The notes beneath the pieces are model-generated. The model was not told the DNA's origin. It did no database searches and saw nothing but the letters and a program-made list of their open reading frames with translations. From Candidatus Cryptobacteroides choladohippi (lineage in GTDB: Bacteria; Bacteroidota; Bacteroidia; Bacteroidales; UBA932), in assembly GCA_018065985.1 (NCBI GenBank), contig JAGHSF010000019.1, positions 6,328 through 70,327 on the forward strand: a stretch of DNA of 64,000 bases, given 5' to 3'. Below are positions 2,394 through 64,000 of the stretch, piece after piece (within the stretch, counting starts at the first letter, position 1; the number at the start of each line of letters is the position of its first letter). Both the position numbers and the translations under genes were made by a program.

Positions 2394-2398
2394 CAATT

Positions 2399-2460
2399 TG
2401 ACGGGGGCTCTGCCCCGTAACGCCCCCCGGCTCCCTTCGGTCGCAGTACGCTAGCGAGCA
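2399..2460. repeat. GC-rich palindromic repeat unit (REP/MITE-like), intergenic copy
   Basis: tgacgggggctctgccccgtaacgccccccggctcccttcggtcgc... begins 6 nt after the EamA stop. It contains the hairpin acgggg-gctctg-ccccgt. My hand alignment to 7882-7928 inside the nfnB-like gene matches about 39 of 47 positions. Confidence 0.6.
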
Positions 2461-5864: not shown

Positions 5865-6800
5865 TTATTTTTGCTGTTTCTTGTGGTGTTTCTGTTTGTG
5901 CCAGAGGCCATAGACCTCGCTGACGTTTCCTGCGGTGATGAATGCATTGATGTTGTTGTCCTTGACATACTTCATCACATACGAGAACTCGTCCTTGGTA
6001 AGAAGGCTCTGTATCTCCATTCTCCTGTCGCCGCTGTAACCGCCTGTAACCTCATACAATGAGCATCCGCGACCCAGTTCCCCGACAATGTATTTCCTTA
6101 TCTGTTCGGTATCGTCGGCGATGATGCATACCCGCTTGCGACGGCTGATGCTGGCCATGAAATGGTCCACGATGAGGCCGTTCAGCCAGGTTCCGATAAG
6201 GCCGATCACAACCATACGGAAGGGGTTGATGGCAAACGCGGTACAGCAGATTATGACGCCTGCGATAGAAACTGACACGCCTATGTCGAAGTGAAAGTAC
6301 TTGTTCACTATCTTGGCAAGGATATCCAGTCCGCCCGTGGATGCGTTGATGCTGAACATGATGGCCTGAGAGGCGCTGAGGATCAGAACGAAAGCAAGCA
6401 GGTCGAACCAGAGGTCACCCATGACGGAGGTCTGCCCCTCCTCCAGAAGCCTGGTGTACGGGCATATCTTCTCCCAGACATTCATGAGGGGGCCCAATAT
6501 CAGCGCAGTATATACTGTCTTTGCGCCGAATTCACGGCCGATCAGGAAGAATGCCAGGACAAGAAGCAAGGCGTTGATGATGAGCACCACCGTCGAAACC
6601 CTGATGACAAAGCCGGCTTCCTGCAGCACGGTGCCTATCACGATGGAGAGTCCGGAGATGCTTCCTACCACCAGCTTGCTGGGTACCAGGAAATAGTAGA
6701 CGGCAGCGGCGGCCACGAACATTCCCAAGGTCATGATGAAAAGCTCCTTCCAGAACTTCCATGTCCTCAGAACATTCAGACACGACAGAATGTTCTCCAT
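5865..6800 (-). CDS. YitT-family membrane protein (DUF2179 C-terminal domain)
   Basis: The N-terminal half is multi-helix, and a soluble C-terminal domain reads CIIADDTEQIRKYIVGELGRGCSLYEVTGGYSGDRR. The ATG at 6800 overlaps the upstream gene's TGA (TGATG). Confidence 0.7.
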   Translation of the reverse strand: MENILSCLNVLRTWKFWKELFIMTLGMFVAAAAVYYFLVPSKLVVGSISGLSIVIGTVLQEAGFVIRVSTVVLIINALLLVLAFFLIGREFGAKTVYTALILGPLMNVWEKICPYTRLLEEGQTSVMGDLWFDLLAFVLILSASQAIMFSINASTGGLDILAKIVNKYFHFDIGVSVSIAGVIICCTAFAINPFRMVVIGLIGTWLNGLIVDHFMASISRRKRVCIIADDTEQIRKYIVGELGRGCSLYEVTGGYSGDRRMEIQSLLTKDEFSYVMKYVKDNNINAFITAGNVSEVYGLWHKQKHHKKQQK

Positions 6801-8323
6801 CAACTGTTCTTCAGATACTCATCAATGGCTTTGGCTGCGGCACGGCCGGCACCCATTGCCAGGATCACGGTAGCCGCACCTGTGACTGCGTCGCCTCCGG
6901 CAAAGATTCCAGGGCGTGTGGTTGCGCCATCCGGGCCTGCTGAAAGGCAGCCGCGGCGGGTTGTCTCCAGACCGGCTGTAGTCTTGGCTATCAGCGGGTT
7001 GGGGCTGGTACCAAGAGCCATGATCACGGTGTCGGCATCTATCTCGAACTCGCTGCCGGGTATGGCGACGGGACTGCGGCGGCCGCTCTCGTCAGGCTCG
7101 CCAAGTTCCATCCTGACGCACTTGAGCGCACGGACCCAGCCTTTGTCGTCGGGAAGCACCTCGACGGGATTGGTGAGAAGGTCGAAGATGATTCCTTCCT
7201 CCTTTGCATGGTGCACTTCCTCACGGCGGGCCGGAAGCTCGGTCTCTGTACGGCGATAGACGATATGGACCTCGGCGCCAAGGCGAAGCGCTGTGCGCGC
7301 CGCATCCATGGCAACGTTGCCGCCACCTACGACACAGACCTTGCGGCCTGCATGGATGGGGGTCATATAATCGCTCCTGTATGCCTTCATCAGATTGTTT
7401 CTGGTAAGGAACTCGTTGGCGGAGAAAACACCGTTGTAGTTCTCGCCGGGGATGCCCATGAACTTGGGGAGTCCCGCTCCCGTGCCGATGAACACGGCCT
7501 TGAAACCTTCATCGTCCATAAGCTGGTCGATGGTGACGGTACGGCCGACGATGACATTCGTCTCTATCTTCACGCCCAGAGCCTTGACCGATTCGATGGC
7601 GGGCTTGAGCACCTTGTCCTTGGGAAGACGGAACTCGGGGATACCATATTCCAGCACTCCCCCAGCCTTGTGCAGGGCCTCGAAGATCGTCACGTCGTAA
7701 CCCATCTTCGCAAGATCCGATGCACATGCCAGACCGGCGGGGCCGCTGCCGATAATGGCGACGCGGGTCGCCGTAACGGCTGCGCCGTTGGCATCTGACG
7801 GGGGTTCTACCCCCGTAACGGCTGCGCCGTTGGCTTTTGACGGGGGTTCTACCCCCGTAACGGCTGCGCCGTTAGCATCTTTGATGGGGGCTCCGCCCCC
7901 ATAACGTCCCCCGGCGACCTCCGGTCGCTGTTCTCCGAGGGAACGGTCTGCAATTTCATCTCCGACGAAGCGCTCGAGCTTGCCGATTGCCACGGCTTCT
8001 CCCTTGACGCCGAGTATGCAGCTGCCTTCGCACTGGGTTTCCTGCGGACAGACGCGGCCGCACACAGCCGGAAGGGACGAATCCCTGGCAATCACCTCGG
8101 CTGCCCCGGGAATGTCTCCCTGGGCAATCCTCTCGATGAAATCAGGAATCTGGATGTTCACAGGGCATGCGCCCACGCAACGAGGATTCTTGCAATGCAG
8201 GCAGCGTGATGCCTCCAGCATGGCTTCCTCCCTGCTGTATCCGTAACAAACCTCTTCAAAATTGGTGGCGCGGACCTTGGGGTCCTGTTCGCGCACCGGC
8301 ACTCTTGGTATTCTGTTAGCCAT
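6800..8323 (-). CDS. nfnB: NfnB-like / glutamate-synthase small-subunit-like NADPH oxidoreductase (2x[4Fe-4S] + FAD/NADPH), carrying an in-frame repeat insertion
   Basis: The N-terminus reads CLHCKNPRCVGACPV ... CGRVCPQETQCEGSC. The dinucleotide folds are RVAIIGSGPAGLACA and VCVVGGGNVAMDAAR, and the C-terminus contains GIFAGGDAVTGAATV. The likely start is MANRIPRV at 8323, in a TAATG overlap with the upstream PyrK-like gene. The symbol is inferred from this pairing. Confidence 0.8.
   Translation of the reverse strand: MANRIPRVPVREQDPKVRATNFEEVCYGYSREEAMLEASRCLHCKNPRCVGACPVNIQIPDFIERIAQGDIPGAAEVIARDSSLPAVCGRVCPQETQCEGSCILGVKGEAVAIGKLERFVGDEIADRSLGEQRPEVAGGRYGGGAPIKDANGAAVTGVEPPSKANGAAVTGVEPPSDANGAAVTATRVAIIGSGPAGLACASDLAKMGYDVTIFEALHKAGGVLEYGIPEFRLPKDKVLKPAIESVKALGVKIETNVIVGRTVTIDQLMDDEGFKAVFIGTGAGLPKFMGIPGENYNGVFSANEFLTRNNLMKAYRSDYMTPIHAGRKVCVVGGGNVAMDAARTALRLGAEVHIVYRRTETELPARREEVHHAKEEGIIFDLLTNPVEVLPDDKGWVRALKCVRMELGEPDESGRRSPVAIPGSEFEIDADTVIMALGTSPNPLIAKTTAGLETTRRGCLSAGPDGATTRPGIFAGGDAVTGAATVILAMGAGRAAAKAIDEYLKNS
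7773..7940. repeat. Tandem 42-bp GC-rich palindromic repeats inside the nfnB-like CDS
   Basis: The unit is tgacgggggttctacccccgtaacggctgcgccgttggc(nnn). Full copies start at 7796 and 7838, with a partial copy at 7773-7795 and a diverged copy at 7882-7940. Hairpins are acggggg-ttcta-cccccgt and acggc-tgc-gccgt. The region is translated as ANGAAVTGVEPPS(K/D) repeats. Confidence 0.85.
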
Positions 8324-9183
8324 TATTTTCCCCTCCCTATTCTGCACACATGGTGCTCCTTTTCTTCAAGTTCCTCGGCCTTGTACTGCCCCTGACGGCG
8401 CATGGCCTCATCAAAGTCGACCTCATATCCATCGAACTCCGGACCCTCGACGCATGCAAAGCGGGTCTTGCCGCCAACGGTGACGCGGCATGCGCCGCAC
8501 ATTCCGGTGCCGTCGACCATGAGGGTGTTCAGGCTGACCACAATGGGAATGCCCAGTTTCTTGCAGGTCAGAGTTGCAAACTTCATCATTATCATGGGTC
8601 CGATGGCAACGGCCTGCGTAAACTTCTCCCCGGCTGCAACAAGGGCTTCCAGCTTTGCCGTTCCAACGCCATGGAATCCGCAGCTGCCATCGTCGGTGCA
8701 GATATGGAGATTGTCGCATACCGCGCCAAGTTCCTCGGTATAGATGAGGAGGTCCTTGGTGCGGGCTCCTATGATCACGTCGACCTTGGCGCCATGCTCA
8801 TGAAGCCACTTCACCTGAGGGTACACGGGAGCTGTTCCCAGTCCTCCGGCAATGAATACATAATGCTGAGCGGAAAGTTCCTCCGCGCTCTTGGTCAGGA
8901 ATTCGGACGGGAGCCCCAAAGGACCGACCACGTCGGCAAAGGCCTCACCCTCTTCAAAAGATATGATGTCTGCGCTGGACGCACCGATCTGCTGAGTTAC
9001 AATGGTCACGCTGCCCTGTGCAGCGTCGTAGTCACTGATTGTGAGAGGAATACGCTCGCCCTTCTCGTCAGCCCTGACGATGAGGAACTGGCCGGGCTTC
9101 GCAGATGAGGCAAGGCGCGGAGCCCTGACCTTCATGCGGCAGATGTTCGGCGTGAGCATTTCCTTCGAAAGAATAGTATACAT
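8323..9183 (-). CDS. nfnA: NfnA-like / PyrK-like FAD-[2Fe-2S] ferredoxin-NADP+ reductase subunit
   Basis: The protein is 286 aa. It has an FAD-binding barrel (GQFLIVRADEKGERIPLTISD), an NAD fold (VFIAGGLGTAPV) and a C-terminal cluster motif (GTGMCGACRV ... FACVEGPEF). Confidence 0.8.
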   Translation of the reverse strand: MYTILSKEMLTPNICRMKVRAPRLASSAKPGQFLIVRADEKGERIPLTISDYDAAQGSVTIVTQQIGASSADIISFEEGEAFADVVGPLGLPSEFLTKSAEELSAQHYVFIAGGLGTAPVYPQVKWLHEHGAKVDVIIGARTKDLLIYTEELGAVCDNLHICTDDGSCGFHGVGTAKLEALVAAGEKFTQAVAIGPMIMMKFATLTCKKLGIPIVVSLNTLMVDGTGMCGACRVTVGGKTRFACVEGPEFDGYEVDFDEAMRRQGQYKAEELEEKEHHVCRIGRGK

Positions 9184-10209: not shown

Positions 10210-10809
10210 CTAAACAATTCCTGAAAAACCAAGGAATGCCATTGCCATGATGCTGACCGTGATGAGCGCGATGGGAAGGCCCTTGAATGCCTTGGGAACG
10301 TCATTCATGGCAAGATGCTCGCGGAGTCCGGCAAAGAGGCACATGGCAAGACCATAGCCCAGAGAGGTGGCAAATGCATATACGGTAGCCTCACCGAGGT
10401 TCATCATATGGGCGGGGCCGCCGAATGCCATCTCCTTTGTAACCACGGTAAGGGCAACGCCGAGCACTGCACAGTTGGTGGTGATCAGAGGAAGGAATAT
10501 GCCGAGAGCCTGATAGAGGCTCGGGCTTATCTTCTTGAGGACGATCTCGACCATCTGCACCAGGGCTGCGATCACGAGGATGAAGCTTATGGTCTGCAGG
10601 AACTCAAGGCCGAAGGGAACGAGAAGGTAATTGTTCAGAAGGTATGTGACTACCGTTGCCAGGGTGATGACGAAGCATACCGCACCTGACATGCCGGTAG
10701 CGGTGCTGAGCTTGTTGGAAACGCCGAGGAACGGACAGATTCCGAGGAACTGGGCAAGCAGGATATTGTTTACGAATATCGCTGAGATTATGATAAGTAT
10801 ATATTCCAT
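10210..10809 (-). CDS. rnfA: Rnf electron-transport complex subunit A
   Basis: NNILLAQFLGICPFLGVS and LPLITTNCAVLG are RnfA/RnfE-family hallmarks. It is the last gene of the rnf cluster. Confidence 0.85.
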   Translation of the reverse strand: MEYILIIISAIFVNNILLAQFLGICPFLGVSNKLSTATGMSGAVCFVITLATVVTYLLNNYLLVPFGLEFLQTISFILVIAALVQMVEIVLKKISPSLYQALGIFLPLITTNCAVLGVALTVVTKEMAFGGPAHMMNLGEATVYAFATSLGYGLAMCLFAGLREHLAMNDVPKAFKGLPIALITVSIMAMAFLGFSGIV

Positions 10810-11400: not shown

Positions 11401-11968
11401 TGTCCTGTCCTCCTTCTTCGTTTGAACCGGCGATTGCCTTGTATGCCTCGACGGCGTTGGCTATCGCAAGAGTGTATGCACGTGAAGTGATGGTGGATGC
11501 GGTGATTGCGTCAACGTCGCCTCCATCCTTCTTTACCTGAAGTTTTTTTGCTGCGGGATCCCAGCCCCTGAACTGTGCCGAGAAATTCTCGGAAACGCAC
11601 TTTGCGCCGAGTCCGGGAGTCTCCGAATGCGAAAGGACCACCGTGTTGAAAACCTCGGGAGTCTCACCGGCGATACCTACCATAAGGCTGAGAGGACCGC
11701 CGAATCCGTTCACGGTAGAAAGTACGGCGATGCCGCTTTCTGTCTGATAGTAAGGATATTCCACGCCTCCGACGGTAATTGAGGAAAGCTTGGGATTTCC
11801 GTTGAATTCAGGCAGCACCCTTGCAATCGAGGCATTGGTCTTGGCCTGTGAAGCCTCGGCGATGGGAGCCTTGGTGACCGCATAGGTCACTGCAAGGACC
11901 GCCGAGCAGAAAAGGCAGACTGCCGTGAGGCAGAGCACCATGTTTTTGAGTGTAGATTTTGCTGCCAT
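11393..11968 (-). CDS. rnfG: Rnf electron-transport complex subunit G (FMN-binding)
   Basis: An N-terminal anchor is followed by an FMN-attachment region, DAITASTITSRA. The preferred start is MAAKSTLK at 11968, 2 nt after the rnfD stop. The ORF-track start at 12010 overlaps rnfD. Confidence 0.8.
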   Translation of the reverse strand: MAAKSTLKNMVLCLTAVCLFCSAVLAVTYAVTKAPIAEASQAKTNASIARVLPEFNGNPKLSSITVGGVEYPYYQTESGIAVLSTVNGFGGPLSLMVGIAGETPEVFNTVVLSHSETPGLGAKCVSENFSAQFRGWDPAAKKLQVKKDGGDVDAITASTITSRAYTLAIANAVEAYKAIAGSNEEGGQDNE

Positions 11969-35323: not shown

Positions 35324-37579
35324 ATGAGAAATTTCAGATTATCAATTGTAAGCATGGCGCTGGCGGCAGCCGTTTCCTGCACGGGAGAACTGCCGGAGCG
35401 CAGCCCCAACCAGGATAACGAAGCCGCCGGACAGGCAAAGGAGGTCTGTATCCGCGGAATGCTGAACGTCGAGTTCACCGAAGAGATGGCAAGGCACATC
35501 GAGACCTCCGGCGAAGAGGCCCTGCTGGCCGAAATGCACGAATATGGAATAGATTCTCTTGTCAGGATGTTCCCCGATGCCGGAGAGTTCGAGGCAAGGC
35601 ACCGTGAAGCCGGGCTGCACCGGTGGTACAAGGTCTCCTACGACCCGGCCGTCCCCGCCACAAAGGCCGCGGCCAGCTTCAGGGAGATTCCCGGGGCCGT
35701 GACTGTCGAAATCCCAAGAAAGAAGCATGCGGCCTCATCATTCCCCTTCAACGACCCATACGCGGGCGAGCAGTGGAATCTCTGCAACACAGCACAGCTA
35801 AGAGGCTTCGTGAAGGATGTCGACATCAATGTCATTCCGCTCTGGGGCATTACCGGCGGCAGCAAGGACGTGATAGTGAACGTGGTCGACACCGGCATCG
35901 ACATGGACCACGAGGATCTGCAGGGGGTATGCATCCCTGCTGACAGCCACGGCAGCCGCAACTTCGTCTACGGGCAGGAAGGCTACAGGATAACCAAGGG
36001 CAGCCACGGCACCCACGTTGCAGGCACGATAGCGGCCATCAGCAACAACGGCAAGGGAATCAGCGGAATCGCAGGCGGACTTGACGGCAAGGGAGGTGTC
36101 CGCATCCTCAACTCCCAGATCTTTTATGAAAGGGATGACGGCAAAGAAGACGGCGGCGACAGCGAGGCCGCGATAGTATGGGGCGCCGACCACGGCGCAC
36201 TGATAAGCCAGAACAGCTGGGGCTATGTCTACGAGAGCGAGCAGGAGGCCAAGGCTGCAGGGGTCCCCAGGGCGTTCAAGGCGGCAGTGGACTACTTCAT
36301 CAAGAACGCAGGCTGTGACGCGAACGGCGAGCAGACCGGCCTGATGAAGGGCGGTCTGGTGGTATTCGCTGCAGGAAACGAGGGATGGGCCTACGCGCAT
36401 CCCGCCGATTACGAACCGATAATGGCAGTCGGCGCAATAGGCCCCGACGGACGCCGCGCCACATATTCGAACTATGGCAGCTGGGTCGACATCTGCGCCC
36501 CCGGAGGCGAGTTCTACAGATTCACCGACCCCATGGCAATGATTCTGGCACCTGCCGGCGGCGAGTACTACTACATGCCCGGCACATCCATGGCCTGCCC
36601 GCATGTGAGCGGAGTGGCGGCACTGCTGATATCTGCCCTCGGAGGACCCGGCTTCACCAATGAAGACCTCAGGGGGATTCTTCTCGACGGAGCGAACCAC
36701 AGCTGCGGGACAAGCGAGATGATAGGGCCCCTGCTCGATGCGTACGGATCATATCTGGCCTACAGCGGCGAGGAAACCCCGCCTGTGATCAAGTCCGACT
36801 ACTATGGCAATTACACCATACGCGGGCACGAAAAGCTTGTTGTGAATTACACCGCAACCAGCAGGAAATCCAAGGTCAGCATCACCGCAAGCTGCGACGG
36901 TTCGGCAAAATACAGGATAGACGGGCAGAGATGCGAGGTCAGCTTCAACGACGCCAGCGGCAAATGGACAGGAACGCACACCCTGACCATCACCGCCACC
37001 AGCGAGAGTGGCAAAAGCACAACGCAGACAATATCCTACACGATTCTCGAGAACCATGCACCCTATGTGCTGCGGGAAGTCCGGGACGTGGTGTTCAAAT
37101 CGGCAGGTGAAAGTCTGGAGGAGAAGCTGGCCTCCGTGTTCAGAGACGATGACGGCGGCACACTCAGCTACAGCTGCAGCTGCAGCGACGAAACAGCCAT
37201 CGGCTGCTCACTTGACGGCAGCACGCTCATACTGAACGCGCTGGGCAACGGCGCCGCGACAATCACCCTGACCGCCACCGACCCCTGCGGACTCAGCTGC
37301 AGCACCAGTTTCAGGGCAGGAGTCTTCGACGGCAGGAACGGACCGGAAATATATCCTGTGCCTGTCGAGGACTGGATGAACATACTCGTAGCCGGAATCA
37401 GCGACACCGACGTAACCATCTACAACTCTGCAGGGAAGAGACTGTACTCGTCGCACAATCCGGGTGCCAGCGTACTCGATCCGGTAAGGGTAGACATGAG
37501 CGGATTCGCACCGGGAAGATACAGGGTCGAGGTAACATACCTCAACAGGACCTTCAGGAAAAACGTAACAAAGAAATGA
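35324..37579 (+). CDS. S8-family (subtilisin-like) serine peptidase with N-terminal propeptide-like region, Ig-like middle domains and a T9SS-type C-terminal sorting domain
   Basis: The catalytic triad contexts are VVDTGIDMDHEDL, SHGTHVAGTIAA and GTSMACPHVSGVAALL. The tail reads IYPVPVEDWMNILVAGISDTDVTIYNSAGKRLYS ... FAPGRYRVEVTYLNRTFRKNVTKK and resembles Por/T9SS CTDs. The N-terminus has a lipobox-like AAAVSC. Confidence 0.88.
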   Translation: MRNFRLSIVSMALAAAVSCTGELPERSPNQDNEAAGQAKEVCIRGMLNVEFTEEMARHIETSGEEALLAEMHEYGIDSLVRMFPDAGEFEARHREAGLHRWYKVSYDPAVPATKAAASFREIPGAVTVEIPRKKHAASSFPFNDPYAGEQWNLCNTAQLRGFVKDVDINVIPLWGITGGSKDVIVNVVDTGIDMDHEDLQGVCIPADSHGSRNFVYGQEGYRITKGSHGTHVAGTIAAISNNGKGISGIAGGLDGKGGVRILNSQIFYERDDGKEDGGDSEAAIVWGADHGALISQNSWGYVYESEQEAKAAGVPRAFKAAVDYFIKNAGCDANGEQTGLMKGGLVVFAAGNEGWAYAHPADYEPIMAVGAIGPDGRRATYSNYGSWVDICAPGGEFYRFTDPMAMILAPAGGEYYYMPGTSMACPHVSGVAALLISALGGPGFTNEDLRGILLDGANHSCGTSEMIGPLLDAYGSYLAYSGEETPPVIKSDYYGNYTIRGHEKLVVNYTATSRKSKVSITASCDGSAKYRIDGQRCEVSFNDASGKWTGTHTLTITATSESGKSTTQTISYTILENHAPYVLREVRDVVFKSAGESLEEKLASVFRDDDGGTLSYSCSCSDETAIGCSLDGSTLILNALGNGAATITLTATDPCGLSCSTSFRAGVFDGRNGPEIYPVPVEDWMNILVAGISDTDVTIYNSAGKRLYSSHNPGASVLDPVRVDMSGFAPGRYRVEVTYLNRTFRKNVTKK

Positions 37580-38574: not shown

Positions 38575-39516
38575 TTATTCTGAAATACCACCAACTAAAT
38601 CAAGAATTTCTGCAGTAATTTTTTGCTGGCGGCCCTTATTGTACTCCAAAGTGAGTTCTGAGAGCAAATCCTGAGCGTTGTCGGACGCCGTCTGCATGGC
38701 AATTGTACGTGCTGCATGCTCCGCTGCGGCAGAATCCAGAACAGCGGCATAGAACCTGAGCATCAGCACCTGAGGCCCGAGTTTTTCAAGGACCTCCTTC
38801 CTTCCGGGCTCGATTATGTATTCCTCATCTTCAGAATCCTTCACAAAGGCGGCACTTGAACCTGAAGAAGTCAGATTCTCCACAACGACCACCTGTTTTG
38901 CCGTGGTCACGAAGTGATTATACACCAGAATCACGTCGCCGAACTCATCCTGAATCCCCTTTGCTATCCTGGAGGCGGCCGCATACGTCGGCTTTGCGAT
39001 GAACTGAGAATAGTCGTCGGTCGGGTAGCCTGCCTTTTTCATGGCATCCGCCATCTTGCGTCCCAGCGAGTACACCGTTACCTTACTGCCCTTATCCTCA
39101 AGATCCTTTGCAAGCTCAAGAGTCTTCTTTATCACATTTCCGTTGAATGCCCCGCAAAGACTCGAATTGGAAGAGATCGACACGATTGCGACTGCATTGC
39201 GTACGGCAGAACTTCCGTTTCGGTCCATCCCATCCTCCGACTCCGCCAGCGGTCCCCCGGACACGGTTCTGCCCGGGCAGGCGCCATCGTCCTCCACTGA
39301 GGGGATCGCGCTGCTGTCTCGAAGGTCAGCGGCCGAAAGGTCGCCGGAAAGCTCGGAAAGGATCTTGGAAAGTTCCTCCTCGTACGGCCTCAGATTCTCA
39401 ATGGCCCTCTGCGCCTTCCTCAATTTGGAAGAAGCCACGAGTTTCATGGCCGATGTGATCTTCAGCGTCGACTTTACCGATCCGATGCGGTCTTTTATTT
39501 CACGCAAGGATGCCAT
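38575..39516 (-). CDS. atpG: F-type ATP synthase subunit gamma (with an extra acidic/Gly-rich segment of roughly 35 residues)
   Basis: MASLREIKDRIGSVKSTLKITSAMKLVASSKLRKAQ ... SSNSSLCGAFN ... TLEYNKGRQQKITAEILDLVGG. Confidence 0.9.
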   Translation of the reverse strand: MASLREIKDRIGSVKSTLKITSAMKLVASSKLRKAQRAIENLRPYEEELSKILSELSGDLSAADLRDSSAIPSVEDDGACPGRTVSGGPLAESEDGMDRNGSSAVRNAVAIVSISSNSSLCGAFNGNVIKKTLELAKDLEDKGSKVTVYSLGRKMADAMKKAGYPTDDYSQFIAKPTYAAASRIAKGIQDEFGDVILVYNHFVTTAKQVVVVENLTSSGSSAAFVKDSEDEEYIIEPGRKEVLEKLGPQVLMLRFYAAVLDSAAAEHAARTIAMQTASDNAQDLLSELTLEYNKGRQQKITAEILDLVGGISE

Positions 39517-47819: not shown

Positions 47820-49361
47820 TTAACGACGTGATGAACTTGAAGACGCGCTGCGGCTGCTTGAGCTGCTGCCGGCAGAGCGGCTTGTTGACGATGCGCTGGT
47901 GCTGCGGCTTGCAGATCCTGCAGAAGAGCTTCTGCTGGCGCTGGATGAGCTGGTAGCTGCGCTTCTGGTGCTGGTGCTGCTGGTGCTGGCACTGCTGGAA
48001 GAGCCTCGCTTTGTGGTGGAAGTACTGCCAGATGCAGTGGTGGTGCGCACGGTGGTCTCAGATGCACCCGAGTCGCTTACCCGGCTCCTGACGGTAGTCT
48101 GGCTGGATGAAGCCCTGGGCGTGCTGCTGTTTGCAGTACTGCGGCTTGCGGAGCCGGTGGAACTGCTGGATGTGGTTGCACTGCGGCTGCTTGAGCCGGA
48201 AGCTGCGCTCCTGGTAGCACTTGAGGTGGCTGCGCTGCGGCTTGCTGAGCTGCTGGAGGTGGCGGCACTGCGGCTGGCTGAGCTGCCTGAAGTGGCGGCA
48301 CTGCGGCTGCTTGAGCTGGAAGCTGCGCTTCTGGCAGCACTTGAGGTGGCGGCGCTGCGGCTTGCTGAACTGCTGGAGGTGGCTGCGCTGCGACTTGCGG
48401 AACTGCCCGAAGTGGCGGCGCTGCGGCTGCTTGAACTGCTTGAGGCAGCGCCTCTTCCGGTCACTGAACCGCCGCGGGTCGAGCCGCTTCTGGTAACTGA
48501 AGATGCCTCGTATGACTCGCGGATGTCGCGGGCATTGGCTGCGCGGCCGCTGGTGGCTGAAGCCACATTGGCATTGCGTACCGTGAACGAGCGCTCAGGA
48601 TGCTGCTGACCGTAGTCGTTGCGCATCATGGGCTGAGCTACGCGCTGGTAGCCGGGATAGTGGCAGGCTGTGGCATAGCGGAACTCGTGACAGTAGTGAT
48701 GGTTATGCATGTATGTGCGCACATATGCATGGTAGTGGCTCAGATACAGAGGAACGGGATGATGGTAGTGGTGAGGCCAGTGATCCCAGCACCAGGGTGA
48801 GCGCCAGGGGTTGTAATGAGGACGGCCGAAATGGATGAAGATTGCAGGTGTCGCATAGAACACGGGCTCGACGATGAAATTGGGGCCGTAGATGTAAGGT
48901 GCGCCGATGATCTGGACATAAGCCTTGGAAGGGCTATTGTACTCACATACGAGAGTTGCAACATCCTGATAGATGTTGGCAGCAAGAACGGCCTGGATCA
49001 CGAATACATGGTTCCTGCCCTCGACTGTTTCCATGACACGCAGATAATCCACGTAACCGTCATTGTTCAGATCAAGGTTGGAAAGCATGAAGGAGTCATT
49101 GTTGAGAAGGTTCTCGAACTCCTCTATCGTGTTCGACTGCGCAAATGCCGCGCCAACGGCCTGAAGGTCGAGGTACAGCGAGATATCCTCACTTGCTGCA
49201 ACCACGCGTGTGGTCGTGGTGACCGTATGTGTCCTGGGCACTGTCACGGTCGTGTAATAGGCGCTCGTGCGGCCTACGTGCGACGACTCGGTGACAATCC
49301 TTGTAGGGCAGCAGCCCGCAGCCACTGCAAGAAGGGTCAGAATGTACAGATAACGTCTCAT
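47820..49361 (-). CDS. Secreted hypothetical protein: globular N-terminal domain, His/Tyr/Pro-rich segment and a low-complexity Ser/Ala/Thr/Arg tandem-repeat tail of roughly 230 residues
   Basis: The start is taken at MRRYLYILTLLAVAAGCC (49361). The core contains WCWDHWPHHYHHPVPLYLSHYHAYVRTYMHNHHYCHEF. The tail is built of SRSAATS(G/S)SSA-type units. The open frame is maintained across about 700 bp of repeats. Confidence 0.6.
   Translation of the reverse strand: MRRYLYILTLLAVAAGCCPTRIVTESSHVGRTSAYYTTVTVPRTHTVTTTTRVVAASEDISLYLDLQAVGAAFAQSNTIEEFENLLNNDSFMLSNLDLNNDGYVDYLRVMETVEGRNHVFVIQAVLAANIYQDVATLVCEYNSPSKAYVQIIGAPYIYGPNFIVEPVFYATPAIFIHFGRPHYNPWRSPWCWDHWPHHYHHPVPLYLSHYHAYVRTYMHNHHYCHEFRYATACHYPGYQRVAQPMMRNDYGQQHPERSFTVRNANVASATSGRAANARDIRESYEASSVTRSGSTRGGSVTGRGAASSSSSSRSAATSGSSASRSAATSSSSASRSAATSSAARSAASSSSSRSAATSGSSASRSAATSSSSASRSAATSSATRSAASGSSSRSATTSSSSTGSASRSTANSSTPRASSSQTTVRSRVSDSGASETTVRTTTASGSTSTTKRGSSSSASTSSTSTRSAATSSSSASRSSSAGSASRSTSASSTSRSAGSSSSSRSASSSSSRR
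48181..48420. repeat. Two tandem 120-bp higher-order repeat units inside the Ser-rich tail
   Basis: 48181-48300 and 48301-48420 both begin ctgcggctgcttgagc.ggaagctgcgct. They differ at only scattered positions. Each encodes about 40 aa made of 11-aa SRSAATSxSSA subunits. Looser copies extend over about 47830-48520. Confidence 0.85.
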
Positions 49362-49388
49362 AGAAGTGTGTGTGTTATTTCGTTTCTG

Positions 49389-49396
49389 CAAATATA
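49389..49396 (-). promoter_or_regulatory. Candidate -7 promoter box (TATATTTG) for the Ser-rich-protein operon
   Basis: The reverse complement of caaatata matches TAnnTTTG. It lies 28-35 nt upstream of ATG 49361. Confidence 0.4.
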
Positions 49397-49735
49397 GCAA
49401 ACATTTTGCCAGAACTTTGCAAGGCAGGGGCCGGACCTGATAAAAAAGTCGCAGTTTGGTCCCGAGAGTAAACGTCATGCATATTTTCAAAAAAGTAAGG
49501 AGCGACATTTTAATTGCTATCCGAAATAAATTTCAGCATTTATGCTTACAATTTATAAGTAATATCCCAAAATTACGCCCCGATTATCATATACAATATA
49601 GTATTTAGGCTTACAGATTCAAACTGGCAATTAATAAAATTTTTGAAAAATCATCAAAATTCCCTATTTTGCGCGGAATTTAGCTTTTTAGGCGAAAATA
49701 CACTGAGTGTATAAATATAACAATCTAATATCATT

Positions 49736-62012: not shown

Positions 62013-64000
62013 ATGATCGCGAAAACTGCGAAAATAGGATTGATTGCCATAGGGGCGGCGATGTTGCTTGCCTCCTGCGCAAAGGAAAGCGGATTCAAGG
62101 AACAGACATATACCGGTTCAACCACGGAAAAGACTGACAAGCCGGCAACCCCTGCCGATGACCTTGAGAGAATGAGGTTCATCCCGGGAGAGGCCGTAGT
62201 GCTGTTCTCCGAGGAGATGACGGACAAGATAGAGAATAACGCCATCGATCTCGAAGGACTGCGCAAGGAGCTTGGAATAAGCAACATGGAAAGACTGTTC
62301 CCCTACGCAGGCGAGTTTGAGAAAAGGACCAGGGCCGAAGGCCTGCACAGGTTCTATCTTGTCGACTTTGACGCAGCGGTCAGCCTCAGCAAGGCCGAAA
62401 GGGCTTTCCAGTCCATGGGAGGCGTGGAATGCTTCGAGCGCCAGCACAAGGTCACCGACCTCACGGTCAATGACACCAACTTCTCTAAGCTCTGGGCGCT
62501 CTCGAGCGCTGCCAGCCCAAAGACAAACATACACGTGGAGCCTGTGTGGGCATACACAATGGGCGATCCCAACGTCATAGTCAATGTGGTCGACACAGGC
62601 ATAGACCTGAACCACGAAGACCTCAGCTGGAACTGCAGCAAGGAGAACAACTTCAACTTTGTGAGGAACAACGAAATTATTACTGCCGGTGAGCACGGAA
62701 CACACGTAGCCGGAACCATTGCCGGCGTCGGCAACAATGCCAAAGGTGTGATCGGAATAGCCGGTGGTGACTATGAGGCCGGCAAAAGGGGCGTGACCTT
62801 GCTCAGTTCCCAGGTATTCTCAGACAACGGGTCGGCAAGAAGTTTTGCAAACGCCATCAAATGGGGCGCCGACCATGGCGCAGTCATCAGCCAGAACAGC
62901 TGGGGCTACGACTACGACTACGACAAGAACGGCAAACTGGAAGGCCAGGAGCTTCAGGATGCTCTTGCAGCCAAGGCAGACAATGCACTCAAGGCCGCTG
63001 TAGACTATTTCATCAAATATGCCGGATGCGACTCTGATGGCAACCAGGCCGAAGGGGCACCCATGAAGGGCGGTCTCGTGGTCTTTGCTGCAGGAAACGA
63101 CGGCATTGCCAACGGAGCACCCGCCAACTATGAGCCTGTTCTGGCCGTAGGAGCCGTCAAAAAGACGGGATTGCTCGACAGCTACTCGAACTATGGCAAA
63201 TGGGTGGACATGTGCGCCCCCGGAACCGATATCTACAGCACCATTCCCGGCAACAGGTACGCCAGCCTCTCCGGCACATCGATGGCCTGTCCCCACGTTT
63301 CCGGAGCAGCCGCCCTGCTGCTTTCATACTTCCAGAAGTATGGCCTGACATGCGATGACCTTCAGGACATGCTGCTCAAGGGAGCAAATCCTGACATTGT
63401 AGGCTATTCCGGAAAGGCATGCGGACCGTACCTCGATGTCAACTCCTCATTCCAGTACGGAATCGAGAAATACATACGCAAGTACAACAACGACCCCATC
63501 ATTGAACCTGACTATGTGGGAGATCTGATCTTCCGCCACTGGGAAGAGGCCAAGATTCCCTTCCACATATATGATCCCGACGGTGACAGCGTCGAGGTCA
63601 CAGCAAAGTTCGACGGTCGCGGAAGCCTTGAAAAGGACCCGGTCAAGGAAGATACATACATCATCTCCGTACTCTGCCAGCTGGTCAGCAGCACAGAGCC
63701 CCAGACCTTCACAATCACGGCAAAGGACATCTACAAGGCTGCAGCCGTAAAGGAATTCAGCTATACCGTCATCCCCAACAGGGATCCTGTGGCTAACAGG
63801 GGCCTCGACAACCTTCTTCTGAACATGGGCGGCAACGTCCCGGAAATCGACCTCACGGGACTGTTCTCCGATCCGGATGAAGAGCCGTTGAAGACCATTG
63901 TGACCACATCGCCTTCAGGAATCATCGATGCAGGTATCAAAGACAACAGACTCAGCCTCTCCCTAACCAACACCGGACTTACCACCGTATCTGTAGTGGC
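62013..64000 (+). CDS. S8-family (subtilisin-like) serine peptidase lipoprotein, paralogue of 35324..37579; C-terminus beyond the right window edge
   Basis: This is my own translation; the ORF is open at the window end and so is absent from the track. It starts MIAKTAKIGLIAIGAAMLLASC (lipobox). The triad contexts are VVDTGIDLNHEDL, EHGTHVAGTIAG and GTSMACPHVSGAAALLL. It shares WGADHGA(L/V)ISQNSWGY, AAVDYFIK.AGCD and KGGLVVFAAGN blocks with the first S8 gene. Confidence 0.88.
   Translation, partial: MIAKTAKIGLIAIGAAMLLASCAKESGFKEQTYTGSTTEKTDKPATPADDLERMRFIPGEAVVLFSEEMTDKIENNAIDLEGLRKELGISNMERLFPYAGEFEKRTRAEGLHRFYLVDFDAAVSLSKAERAFQSMGGVECFERQHKVTDLTVNDTNFSKLWALSSAASPKTNIHVEPVWAYTMGDPNVIVNVVDTGIDLNHEDLSWNCSKENNFNFVRNNEIITAGEHGTHVAGTIAGVGNNAKGVIGIAGGDYEAGKRGVTLLSSQVFSDNGSARSFANAIKWGADHGAVISQNSWGYDYDYDKNGKLEGQELQDALAAKADNALKAAVDYFIKYAGCDSDGNQAEGAPMKGGLVVFAAGNDGIANGAPANYEPVLAVGAVKKTGLLDSYSNYGKWVDMCAPGTDIYSTIPGNRYASLSGTSMACPHVSGAAALLLSYFQKYGLTCDDLQDMLLKGANPDIVGYSGKACGPYLDVNSSFQYGIEKYIRKYNNDPIIEPDYVGDLIFRHWEEAKIPFHIYDPDGDSVEVTAKFDGRGSLEKDPVKEDTYIISVLCQLVSSTEPQTFTITAKDIYKAAAVKEFSYTVIPNRDPVANRGLDNLLLNMGGNVPEIDLTGLFSDPDEEPLKTIVTTSPSGIIDAGIKDNRLSLSLTNTGLTTVSVV

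Follow-up and report, generated by a model that had tools for sequence, protein, structure and literature searches.

How does a GC-rich palindromic DNA repeat come to lie, in frame, within the gene for a conserved redox enzyme? This question is raised by a 64,000-nucleotide (nt) stretch from Candidatus Cryptobacteroides choladohippi (contig JAGHSF010000019.1; hereafter the window), in which an nfnB/gltD-like gene contains a tandem array of short hairpins. The sequence-only reading, an earlier inspection of the letters made without database searches, had offered two interpretations: an element resembling repetitive extragenic palindromes (REPs) or miniature transposable elements with inverted repeats (MITEs) that is tolerated in coding DNA, or a hairpin-forming repeat undergoing in-frame expansion. 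Our results support the two holding together. The array is, with high probability, one intragenic member of a dispersed family of GC-rich, palindromic mosaic repeats, of the kind known as REPs, bacterial interspersed mosaic elements (BIMEs) and Rickettsia palindromic elements (RPEs).

The array is 177 nt long and is composed of a few small modules. Hairpin A (19 nt, ACGGGGGTTCTACCCCCGT) lies at 7798-7816 and 7840-7858, and a variant, A' (ATGGGGGCTCCGCCCCCAT), at 7884-7902; hairpin B (13 nt, ACGGCTGCGCCGT) occurs at 7776-7788, 7818-7830 and 7860-7872. The tail consists of AACGTCCCCCGG, hairpin C (GCGACC-TCC-GGTCGC, 7914-7928) and CTGTTCTCCGAGGGA, and ends near 7947. Tandem Repeats Finder reported a period of 42 at 7771-7906 (3.2 copies, 87% matches, score 202), in agreement with a direct-repeat search, in which copies started at 7771, 7813 and 7855 with identities of 95% and 76%. 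The 42-bp tandem unit inside the nfnB/gltD-like coding sequence had thus been recognised correctly, as had the two short hairpins per unit, which can be read directly as A and B; the supposed partial copy at 7773-7795 is actually a B module. The GC content of the array was 66%, against 59.5% in the remainder of the gene, and RNA folding of 7765-7950 gave -95.2 kcal/mol, with z = -4.84 relative to shuffled sequence.

To place the array in a wider context, we built an nhmmer profile from 31 copies taken only from other genomes. Applied to the window, this profile recovered 7876-7947 (E = 2.5e-14), 2394-2450 (4.3e-13), 7834-7864 (2.2e-9) and 7792-7822 (2.3e-8), with no fifth match below E = 7.6. 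This shows that the window copies belong to a dispersed hairpin family. The first match confirms the diverged copy previously placed at 7882-7940 as real, but that copy had been ended too early, since the element reaches ~7947 with the tail CTGTTCTCCGAGGGA. The second match is intergenic: it begins 3 nt past the EamA stop codon, upstream of an S41 peptidase gene, and lacks a C from the 3' arm of hairpin A. Local alignment of the intergenic and genic copies gave 43/52 identities with one gap and a score of 57, and the next best score window-wide on both strands was 29. Together with the profile E value of 4.3e-13, this makes the similarity to 2399-2444, first noticed by hand alignment, significant.

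We then scanned one genome per GTDB species with the pattern GGGGGYTCYRCCCCN{0,1}RTAACG and found at least 114 exact-core stretches, so the earlier caveat that no further genomic copies might exist does not apply. A rough uniform-composition estimate for the core pattern predicts a few tens of chance matches. Apparent chance matches (in Rhodococcus, Streptomyces, Leptolyngbya and others) had no conserved flanks; true copies agreed at positions that the pattern did not force, namely AC ahead of the hairpin and CCCC(C) after GTAACG. Single matches in Lachnospiraceae, Anaerobutyricum and a "Proteobacteria" bin had Treponema-type flanks. The core unit spans ~38 nt, TTGAC-GGGGG-YTCYR-CCCCC-GTAACG-CCCCC (~31-38 nt for its nearly invariant form, ACGGGGGYTCYRCCCCCGTAACGCCCCC), and is joined to further small modules of hairpin type, namely B, C and longer tails.

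Among 103 non-redundant copies, the loop-closing pair was C-G in 78, T-A in 22 and mismatched in 3, where the marginal frequencies predict ~36 mismatches; the outer pair was C-G in 95, T-A in 5 and mismatched in 3. This covariation therefore defines an 8-bp stem (AC GGGGG Y / R CCCCC GT) with a TCY triloop. The A' hairpin of the window (AT...AT) is a doubly compensated variant of this stem. Two other identities were considered and dropped: an attC-like site, as the GTTRRRY box is absent, and an origin from a tRNA T-arm, as the loop length is wrong. A search of IMG/VR viral contigs with the 26-nt core pattern returned 0 matches and therefore gave no sign of phage carriage.

We took the longest stop-free frame across each core and then checked it against Pfam. 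At least 15 host gene families had Pfam domains flanking the insert on both sides. The hosts were AtpG, TilS, UvrA, an RlmI-like methyltransferase, ArgS, a sigma-54 activator and PurL in the Bacteroidales metagenome-assembled genome (MAG) Horse_feces71 (GCA_024401745.1); ArgS (at the same site), a poly-ferredoxin (Fer4 protein) and NfnB in Cryptobacteroides; and MetH (four species), UvrD, PurF (two species), MnmE and an NFACT protein in Treponema. UvrA of Horse_feces71 (L041) has the A-B-A tandem arrangement that is present in the window. The forward reading, FDGGSTPVTPP, is used in AtpG, ArgS, PurL, the Fer4 protein, MetH and UvrD, the other two forward frames having stops. Reverse frame 1, GGVTG(A/V)EPPS, is used in TilS, UvrA, the RlmI-like methyltransferase, the sigma-54 activator, NfnB, PurF, MnmE and the NFACT protein, and reverse frame 2, GGRYGGG(A/T)P(I/V)K, in NfnB. 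Because three frames and both orientations are in use, it is the nucleotide sequence that is conserved and not the peptide, and conservation at the peptide level was ruled out. The same usage shows that, within genes, only stop-free, frame-preserving copies survive. At least 10 of the 13 exact-core loci in the closest relatives (Horse_feces71 and Cryptobacteroides) were genic; the Muribaculaceae copies and most Treponema copies were intergenic. The many loci, the at least 15 in-frame host genes and the MITE context in Treponema (see below) bear out the proposal of a REP/MITE-like element that tolerates coding DNA.

The window holds a second in-frame case, which the sequence-only reading did not mention. 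Its atpG gene (38575-39516, minus strand, 313 aa) has an in-frame insert of ~50 aa, encoding ...SGDLSAADLRDSSAIPSVEDDGACPGRTVSGGPLAESEDGMDRNGSS..., that retains the tail and downstream modules of the mosaic element without hairpin A. In the Horse_feces71 atpG orthologue (L006 6110-6317), the full element, including hairpin A, occupies the same place. As a separate observation, ArgS of Horse_feces71 (L085) and of Cryptobacteroides (L101) carries the element at one site in the DALR anticodon-binding domain (...ILRK..FDGGSTPVTPPE...); this common site is due either to an old insertion that both share or to the site having been hit more than once.

The host gene of the array has what is expected of an NfnB small subunit: a 2x[4Fe-4S] domain, an FAD/NADPH Rossmann domain and an adjoining NfnA-like partner. 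Translation likely starts at the ATG at 8323, giving 507 aa. The segment encoded by the array falls between Fer4_20 (aa 26-134) and Pyr_redox_2 (aa 195-501). Alignment to Thermotoga maritima NfnB (PDB 4ylf_B, E = 4e-149) covers both sides of the insert and breaks at query residues 139-186 versus chain residues 138-141, so both sources agree with the earlier placement of the segment in the linker between the two domains. The minus-strand translation of the array, SLGEQRPEVAGGRYGGGAPIKDANGAAVTGVEPPSKANGAAVTGVEPPSDANGAAVTA(T), likewise agrees exactly with the in-frame read-through ending at RVAIIGSGPAG that had been described. From ERF to the GxGxxG strand, the linker measures ~71 aa, versus 21-28 aa in element-free orthologues. 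In an AlphaFold2 (AF2) model based on 45 close homologues, a structure prediction that the sequence-only reading had suggested, residues 131-180 were coil, with predicted local distance difference test (pLDDT) values of 25-32 in a model that was poor overall. The predicted product is NfnB with an Ala/Gly/Pro-rich linker that is probably disordered; predicted tryptic peptides from the insert are DANGAAVTGVEPPSK and ANGAAVTGVEPPSDANGAAVTATR. A protein search with the 59-aa insert peptide gave 43 candidates that shared words with it, but none of them scored, probably owing to low complexity, and the census of host proteins was therefore drawn from DNA matches.

The neighbourhood is conserved (rnf - nfnA - nfnB - YitT - ROK - RecO - S41 - EamA), which allowed comparison of the locus between strains and species. 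In the window's species, alleles were 99.6-99.9% identical outside the linker (last 900 nt of nfnB). Inside it, copy number differs between strains, as had been suggested for checking: NfnB alleles of 479, 503, 507 and 508 aa occur in one species. Exactly 2 x 14 aa separate the 479-aa allele from the 507-aa one, the former lacking units 1 and 2. DNA alignment of conspecific alleles showed that whole 42-43-nt units had been gained or lost and modules swapped, in line with the proposed in-frame expansion of a hairpin repeat. Tail 2, found in the 503-aa allele, is closer to the window's intergenic copy than to its genic copy. Independent assemblies from NCBI, ENA and Logan contain the same NfnB alleles.

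At this place, L118, a related species with 83-86% nt identity, carries a single element made up of a partial B module, A and tail 1. Orthologous single elements at the NfnB linker were found in L118, L125 and L126, with the arrangement B-A'-tail in the latter two, which are one-unit alleles of the window's own species. The segment is absent from a close orthologue (P0014/L120; 460 aa), which has an element-free, AT-rich linker of 24 aa. The EamA-S41 spacer of L118 is also element-free, at 35 nt. Two further observations concern this spacer in conspecific sequences. In L125 (15730-15926), an 84-nt palindromic insert with hairpins of its own (TTGGAGGGGTACGCCCCTCCAA and GCAAGCCTGGCTTGC) takes the place of the 5' (GGGGG) arm of hairpin A, and a 10-nt direct repeat, CGCTAGCGAG, opens the insert and recurs downstream of the element. 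The Logan contig L117 ends at its position 1 inside the intergenic element, at GTAACGCCCCCC, which suggests that the repeat breaks short-read assemblies.

The NfnB linker has received more than this one element. Across 119 NfnB orthologue cluster representatives (at least 74% identity), the protein outside the linker measured 434-441 aa, and the ERF-to-GxGxxG distance ranged from 21 to 104 aa; the linker was 30 aa or shorter in 76 clusters and longer than 40 aa in 41, and these 41 carry an insert of some sort there. At least six unrelated types of insert sequence occur there. Four of these types were studied as DNA, and their linkers folded into long hairpins at -77 to -113 kcal/mol, values obtained without shuffled controls. 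A 68-nt piece of the L124 linker has an inverted copy 1.3 kb away (10465-10532 / 11760-11827; 98.5% identity), within the coordinates of the neighbouring FGGY (glycerol-kinase-like) gene; 39 nt of the Horse_feces71 linker (L123) are 100% identical to a stretch beside the PurL insert of the same genome; and 31 nt are common to the L122 and L124 linkers. In the comparison of the four types, the L121 linker matched only itself. Since three of the four types have copies elsewhere, the NfnB linker gathers several palindromic modules.

Table 1. Copies of the hairpin element in the window, the NfnB alleles of the species and the genomes carrying the core (window coordinates unless a locus is named; modules in element orientation)
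Feature	Location or source	Strand	Composition or evidence
Whole intragenic repeat array	7771..7947	+	B-A-B-A-B-A'-tail; tandem repeat, profile and translation data
B hairpin copy 0, joins GxGxxG-encoding DNA	7776..7788	+	ACGGC-TGC-GCCGT; direct reading
42-nt unit 1	7796..7837	+	TGAC + hairpin A (7798-7816) + GTAACG + hairpin B (7818-7830) + spacer; nhmmer E 2.3e-8
42-nt unit 2	7838..7879	+	hairpin A (7840-7858) + hairpin B (7860-7872); nhmmer E 2.2e-9
Terminal full element	7880..7947	+	TTTGAT + hairpin A' (7884-7902) + ATAACG + TCCCCCGG + hairpin C + CTGTTCTCCGAGGGA; nhmmer E 2.5e-14
Intergenic full element	2394..2450	+	hairpin A minus one C, then GTAACG-CCCCCCGG-tail subtype 2; nhmmer E 4.3e-13
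Related insert within atpG	~39209-39354	-	blastn to L006, 87% over 92 nt; Horse_feces71 atpG alignment
NfnB/GltD-like NADPH-dependent oxidoreductase subunit	6800..8347	-	Fer4_20 2.1e-42, Pyr_redox_2 5.7e-38; 4ylf_B E 4e-149
nfnA-like gene upstream of nfnB	8323-9183	-	DHODB_Fe-S_bind domain
479-aa NfnB allele	five assemblies incl. GCA_024401725.1		B-A'-tail 1
507-aa NfnB allele	window and P0123		B-A-B-A-B-A'-tail 1
508-aa NfnB allele	L127		B-A'-B-A-B-A'-tail 1
503-aa NfnB allele	three assemblies incl. GCA_900767365.1		B-A-B-A-tail 2, other reverse frame
Treponema/Spirochaetaceae MITE loci	L004, L005, L014, L020, L022, L037, L072, L075, L076, L083		four internal GC-rich hairpins incl. A
Exact-core loci	Treponema MAG Pc512_bin78		at least 17
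Exact-core loci	Bacteroidales MAG Horse_feces71		at least 10
Exact-core loci	Muribaculaceae MAG		at least 8
Exact-core loci	second Muribaculaceae-like bin		at least 4
Exact-core loci	several other Treponema MAGs		at least 4 each
Exact-core loci	T. bryantii XBD1002, cultured isolate		at least 4
Exact-core loci	T. bryantii NK4A124, cultured isolate		at least 2
Exact-core loci	Cryptobacteroides MAG		at least 3
Exact-core loci	two Fibrobacter MAGs		at least 1 each

The single element at the same linker site in L118 suggests an insertion ancestral to both species. The element may have persisted because the linker tolerates extra residues and the frame used is stop-free. Within the window's species, the number of 42-nt B+A units has changed (one versus three A hairpins, with two in the 503-aa allele), and A and A', as well as tail 1 and tail 2, have been exchanged. 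The 42-nt steps could have arisen by replication slippage or by unequal recombination between GTAACG-B-A units, and the module swaps by gene conversion with other copies or by allele exchange.

Spread to new loci would most likely involve mobilisation in trans by a transposase. In the Treponema MAG Pc512_bin78, the hairpin lies inside 130-290-nt MITEs whose terminal inverted repeats measure 19 nt (CCACTGTCAACAACTTAAG), and perfect 8-bp target-site duplications surround 4 of 11 Treponema MITE copies (L014, L022, L076 and L083). These ends and duplications imply a DDE transposase acting in trans. A search for a full-length insertion sequence with the Treponema terminal inverted repeats found only MITE-sized pairs (110-290 nt) and no parent element. 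The candidate mobiliser could be either a DDE enzyme acting on larger hairpin-bearing MITEs, as in Treponema, or an HUH/Y1 enzyme recognising the single-stranded hairpin, as for REPs. The Treponema composites resemble MITEs in their terminal inverted repeats and duplications, whereas the window copies show neither.

Several points weigh against the array being a copy of a dispersed mobile repeat. Its density is modest, with only two core loci and one relic in the 64-kb window, and binning contamination may account for some of the single matches in other phyla. None of the Bacteroidales copies examined (the EamA spacer and comparisons of L012 with L120 and of L099 with the window) showed a target-site duplication or a clean empty/filled junction; because the surrounding sequence has been replaced or is too diverged, no target site can be defined for these copies. 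Cryptobacteroides L012, which has an element-bearing linker, is 98.6% identical to L120 over 6.3 kb, but the entire linker and some flank are replaced between them, so that the difference looks like allele exchange and not a fresh insertion. A tblastn search with an IS200 TnpA sequence gave no match in 0.9 Mb of loci, a weak negative because the search covered only 8-kb slices. Every close relative is a MAG or a metagenome contig, and tandem units can be miscounted in assemblies of short reads. As for the product, we infer translation of the NfnB insert from its intact frame, and the AF2 model has a mean pLDDT of only 56, so it speaks weakly for a disordered linker.

An alternative that we regard as unlikely is that selection maintains the hairpins as a structure acting in cis, in RNA or DNA, exapted for ribosome pausing between the Fe-S and flavin domains, as a 3'-end stabiliser or terminator behind EamA, or as a protein-binding site. 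The stem is kept by covariation, the array folds far better than shuffled sequence (z = -4.84), the NfnB insert is always at the domain boundary, and the intergenic copy lies 3 nt past a stop codon, a position typical of REPs that act on mRNA 3' ends (PMC3733652). Recognition of the hairpin by a transposase, however, would lead one to expect the covariation just as much, and both orientations are found in genes. Moreover, one-unit and three-unit strains of the species fare equally well, as do strains with differing tails, close relatives lack any element, and the stem of the intergenic copy is damaged. A terminator and promoter scan of 2200-2700 found none and no T-tract, which excludes a canonical intrinsic terminator at the intergenic copy. 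Rfam searches of the whole window at the gathering threshold, and of 7700-8000 at E values up to 10, returned only noise, so the hairpin is not a described RNA family.

A purely local minisatellite expanding by slippage, with other loci alike through convergent GC-rich low complexity, would account for unit numbers that differ between strains by 42-nt steps and for Bacteroidales copies in which neither a transposase nor a target-site duplication was found. This explanation is largely refuted and very improbable: the window copies are found, at E values down to 2.5e-14, by a profile derived from other genomes, the unforced flanks (AC before, CCCC after) are kept in real matches and not in chance ones, the A-B-A arrangement recurs in UvrA of another genome (L041), and the Treponema hairpin lies in MITEs with target-site duplications. 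Least probable of all, and in our view barely credible, is an ordinary lineage-specific linker under peptide selection or an assembly or binning artefact, which would suit the Ala/Gly/Pro-rich composition, like that of many natural linkers, and the origin of the data in metagenome assemblies, but is opposed by the reading of this DNA in three frames and both orientations by unrelated proteins, a usage that excludes selection on the peptide, by the recurrence of the alleles in independent NCBI, ENA and Logan assemblies, by the core in cultured T. bryantii isolates, and by the length of the array (177 nt), near that of one short read.

A copy of a dispersed palindromic mosaic repeat thus remains our preferred reading, and it can be compared with several known systems. 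Like coding-region variable-number tandem repeats, the array has a unit length divisible by three (42 nt, 14 aa) and a copy number that differs between strains; unlike them, its unit derives from a dispersed palindromic element and not from local sequence. BIMEs are extragenic enterobacterial mosaics of GTAG REPs served by a REP-associated tyrosine transposase (RAYT). The array resembles them in that a palindromic unit alternates with short motifs and unit number is strain-variable, and departs from them in lying inside a coding sequence and in that no RAYT was found (IS200 TnpA tblastn, 0.9 Mb).

REPs carrying GTAG or CGTC tags include intragenic ones in uvrA, uvrD and tRNA synthetase genes, and REP clusters can encode 43-82 aa; in the same study, RPE-4 and RPE-6 were equated with CGTC REPs, which have no dedicated transposase (Di Nocera et al. 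2013, PMC3733652). The taxa covered there include no Bacteroidales or Treponema, the only Bacteroidetes and Spirochaetes being Gramella and Turneriella (PMC3733652). The likeness is considerable: REPs are multi-copy, are often grouped with other motifs and have a short GC-rich stem-loop of ~8 bp between a conserved tag and a tail, and some lie in frame in uvrA, uvrD and tRNA synthetase genes, which also host the present element. A dedicated transposase, which CGTC REPs are reported to lack, was not found here in the 0.9 Mb of loci searched with IS200 TnpA. Read in reverse, the present core is GGGGG-CGTT-AC-GGGGG-YRGAR-CCCCC-GT-CAAA, with tag, 8-bp stem and tail laid out as in REPs. Compared approximately with the REP consensus, the tag is CGTT instead of CGTC, a difference of one base, the stem starts with AC instead of AT, the loop has 3 nt instead of 4-5, and the tail is CAA instead of CCA. 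On the opposite side, ~30 of the 103 copies, mostly from Treponema, carry CTAC, the reverse reading of GTAG. REPs are also mostly extragenic and occur in different taxa, whereas at least 10 of 13 present cores are genic in the sampled Bacteroidales relatives and one core is common to two phyla.

A 2024 review of prokaryotic MITEs names RPEs as the extreme example of elements inserted in frame and leaves Bacteroidales and Treponema unmentioned (PMC10969869). RPEs are palindromic repeats lying in frame in many unrelated housekeeping genes as tolerated peptide segments (Ogata et al. 2000, cited via PMC10969869), a likeness to our element at the level of description. RPEs are ~100-150 bp long and confined to obligate intracellular Rickettsia; the present element has a ~38-nt core, is modular, occurs in free-living gut anaerobes and differs in copy number between strains. 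The earlier view overstated how uncommon an in-frame hairpin repeat is, as intragenic REPs and RPEs have already been described (PMC3733652, PMC10969869). A literature search with the hairpin strings gave a sole match, a Torque Teno Mini virus genotype study, which we judged unrelated by its title. Intragenic REP/RPE-like repeats are therefore known, and the present hairpin family appears to be undescribed.

Two other features of the window were noticed in passing. At 47820-49508 (minus strand), a 562-aa open reading frame has a long Ser/Ala/Thr/Arg-rich end repeat (SASRSAATSSSS...); the underlying DNA repeats at 47845-48473 have periods of 33 and 120 nt, score up to 426 and are unrelated to the hairpin element. 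Two paralogous coding stretches, 35868-36519 and 62572-63238, are 73-83% identical and 26.7 kb apart; they encode motifs such as VVDTGID and SNYG and, by appearance, may be subtilisin-type peptidases.

The presence of hairpins in genes is less rare in kind than the sequence-only reading had held, yet wider than a single locus. What is unusual is a core common to several phyla, a high genic share in one Bacteroidales lineage, and strain-level unit polymorphism in an essential-looking redox gene. A broader reading, which we offer tentatively as possible, is that of an undescribed family with a ~31-38-nt core common to gut Bacteroidota and Spirochaetota, and probably Fibrobacterota, that turns over at the strain level, is mainly genic in some lineages, and uses linkers as recurrent landing or retention sites, together with other palindromic elements. 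If this is true, the mobilisation machinery or a horizontal transfer route for the hairpin core crosses phyla, and free-living, culturable gut anaerobes (T. bryantii) would offer a tractable counterpart of RPEs for studying how selfish hairpin DNA builds linkers. One hairpin core across phyla, with no transposase found, sharpens the question posed by CGTC REPs of how such repeats spread.

For annotation, hairpin inserts inflate and fragment protein clusters, can break short-read assemblies and mislead the assignment of domain architecture, and serve as strain markers. The NfnB linker, at 21 to 104 residues, is a natural experiment on insertion tolerance in a multi-cofactor enzyme. Selfish palindromic DNA would on this reading be an active strain-level source of protein length variation in abundant gut anaerobes, affecting NfnB, a member of the electron-bifurcating transhydrogenase family in central redox metabolism, as well as ATP synthase gamma, UvrA, ArgS and PurL.

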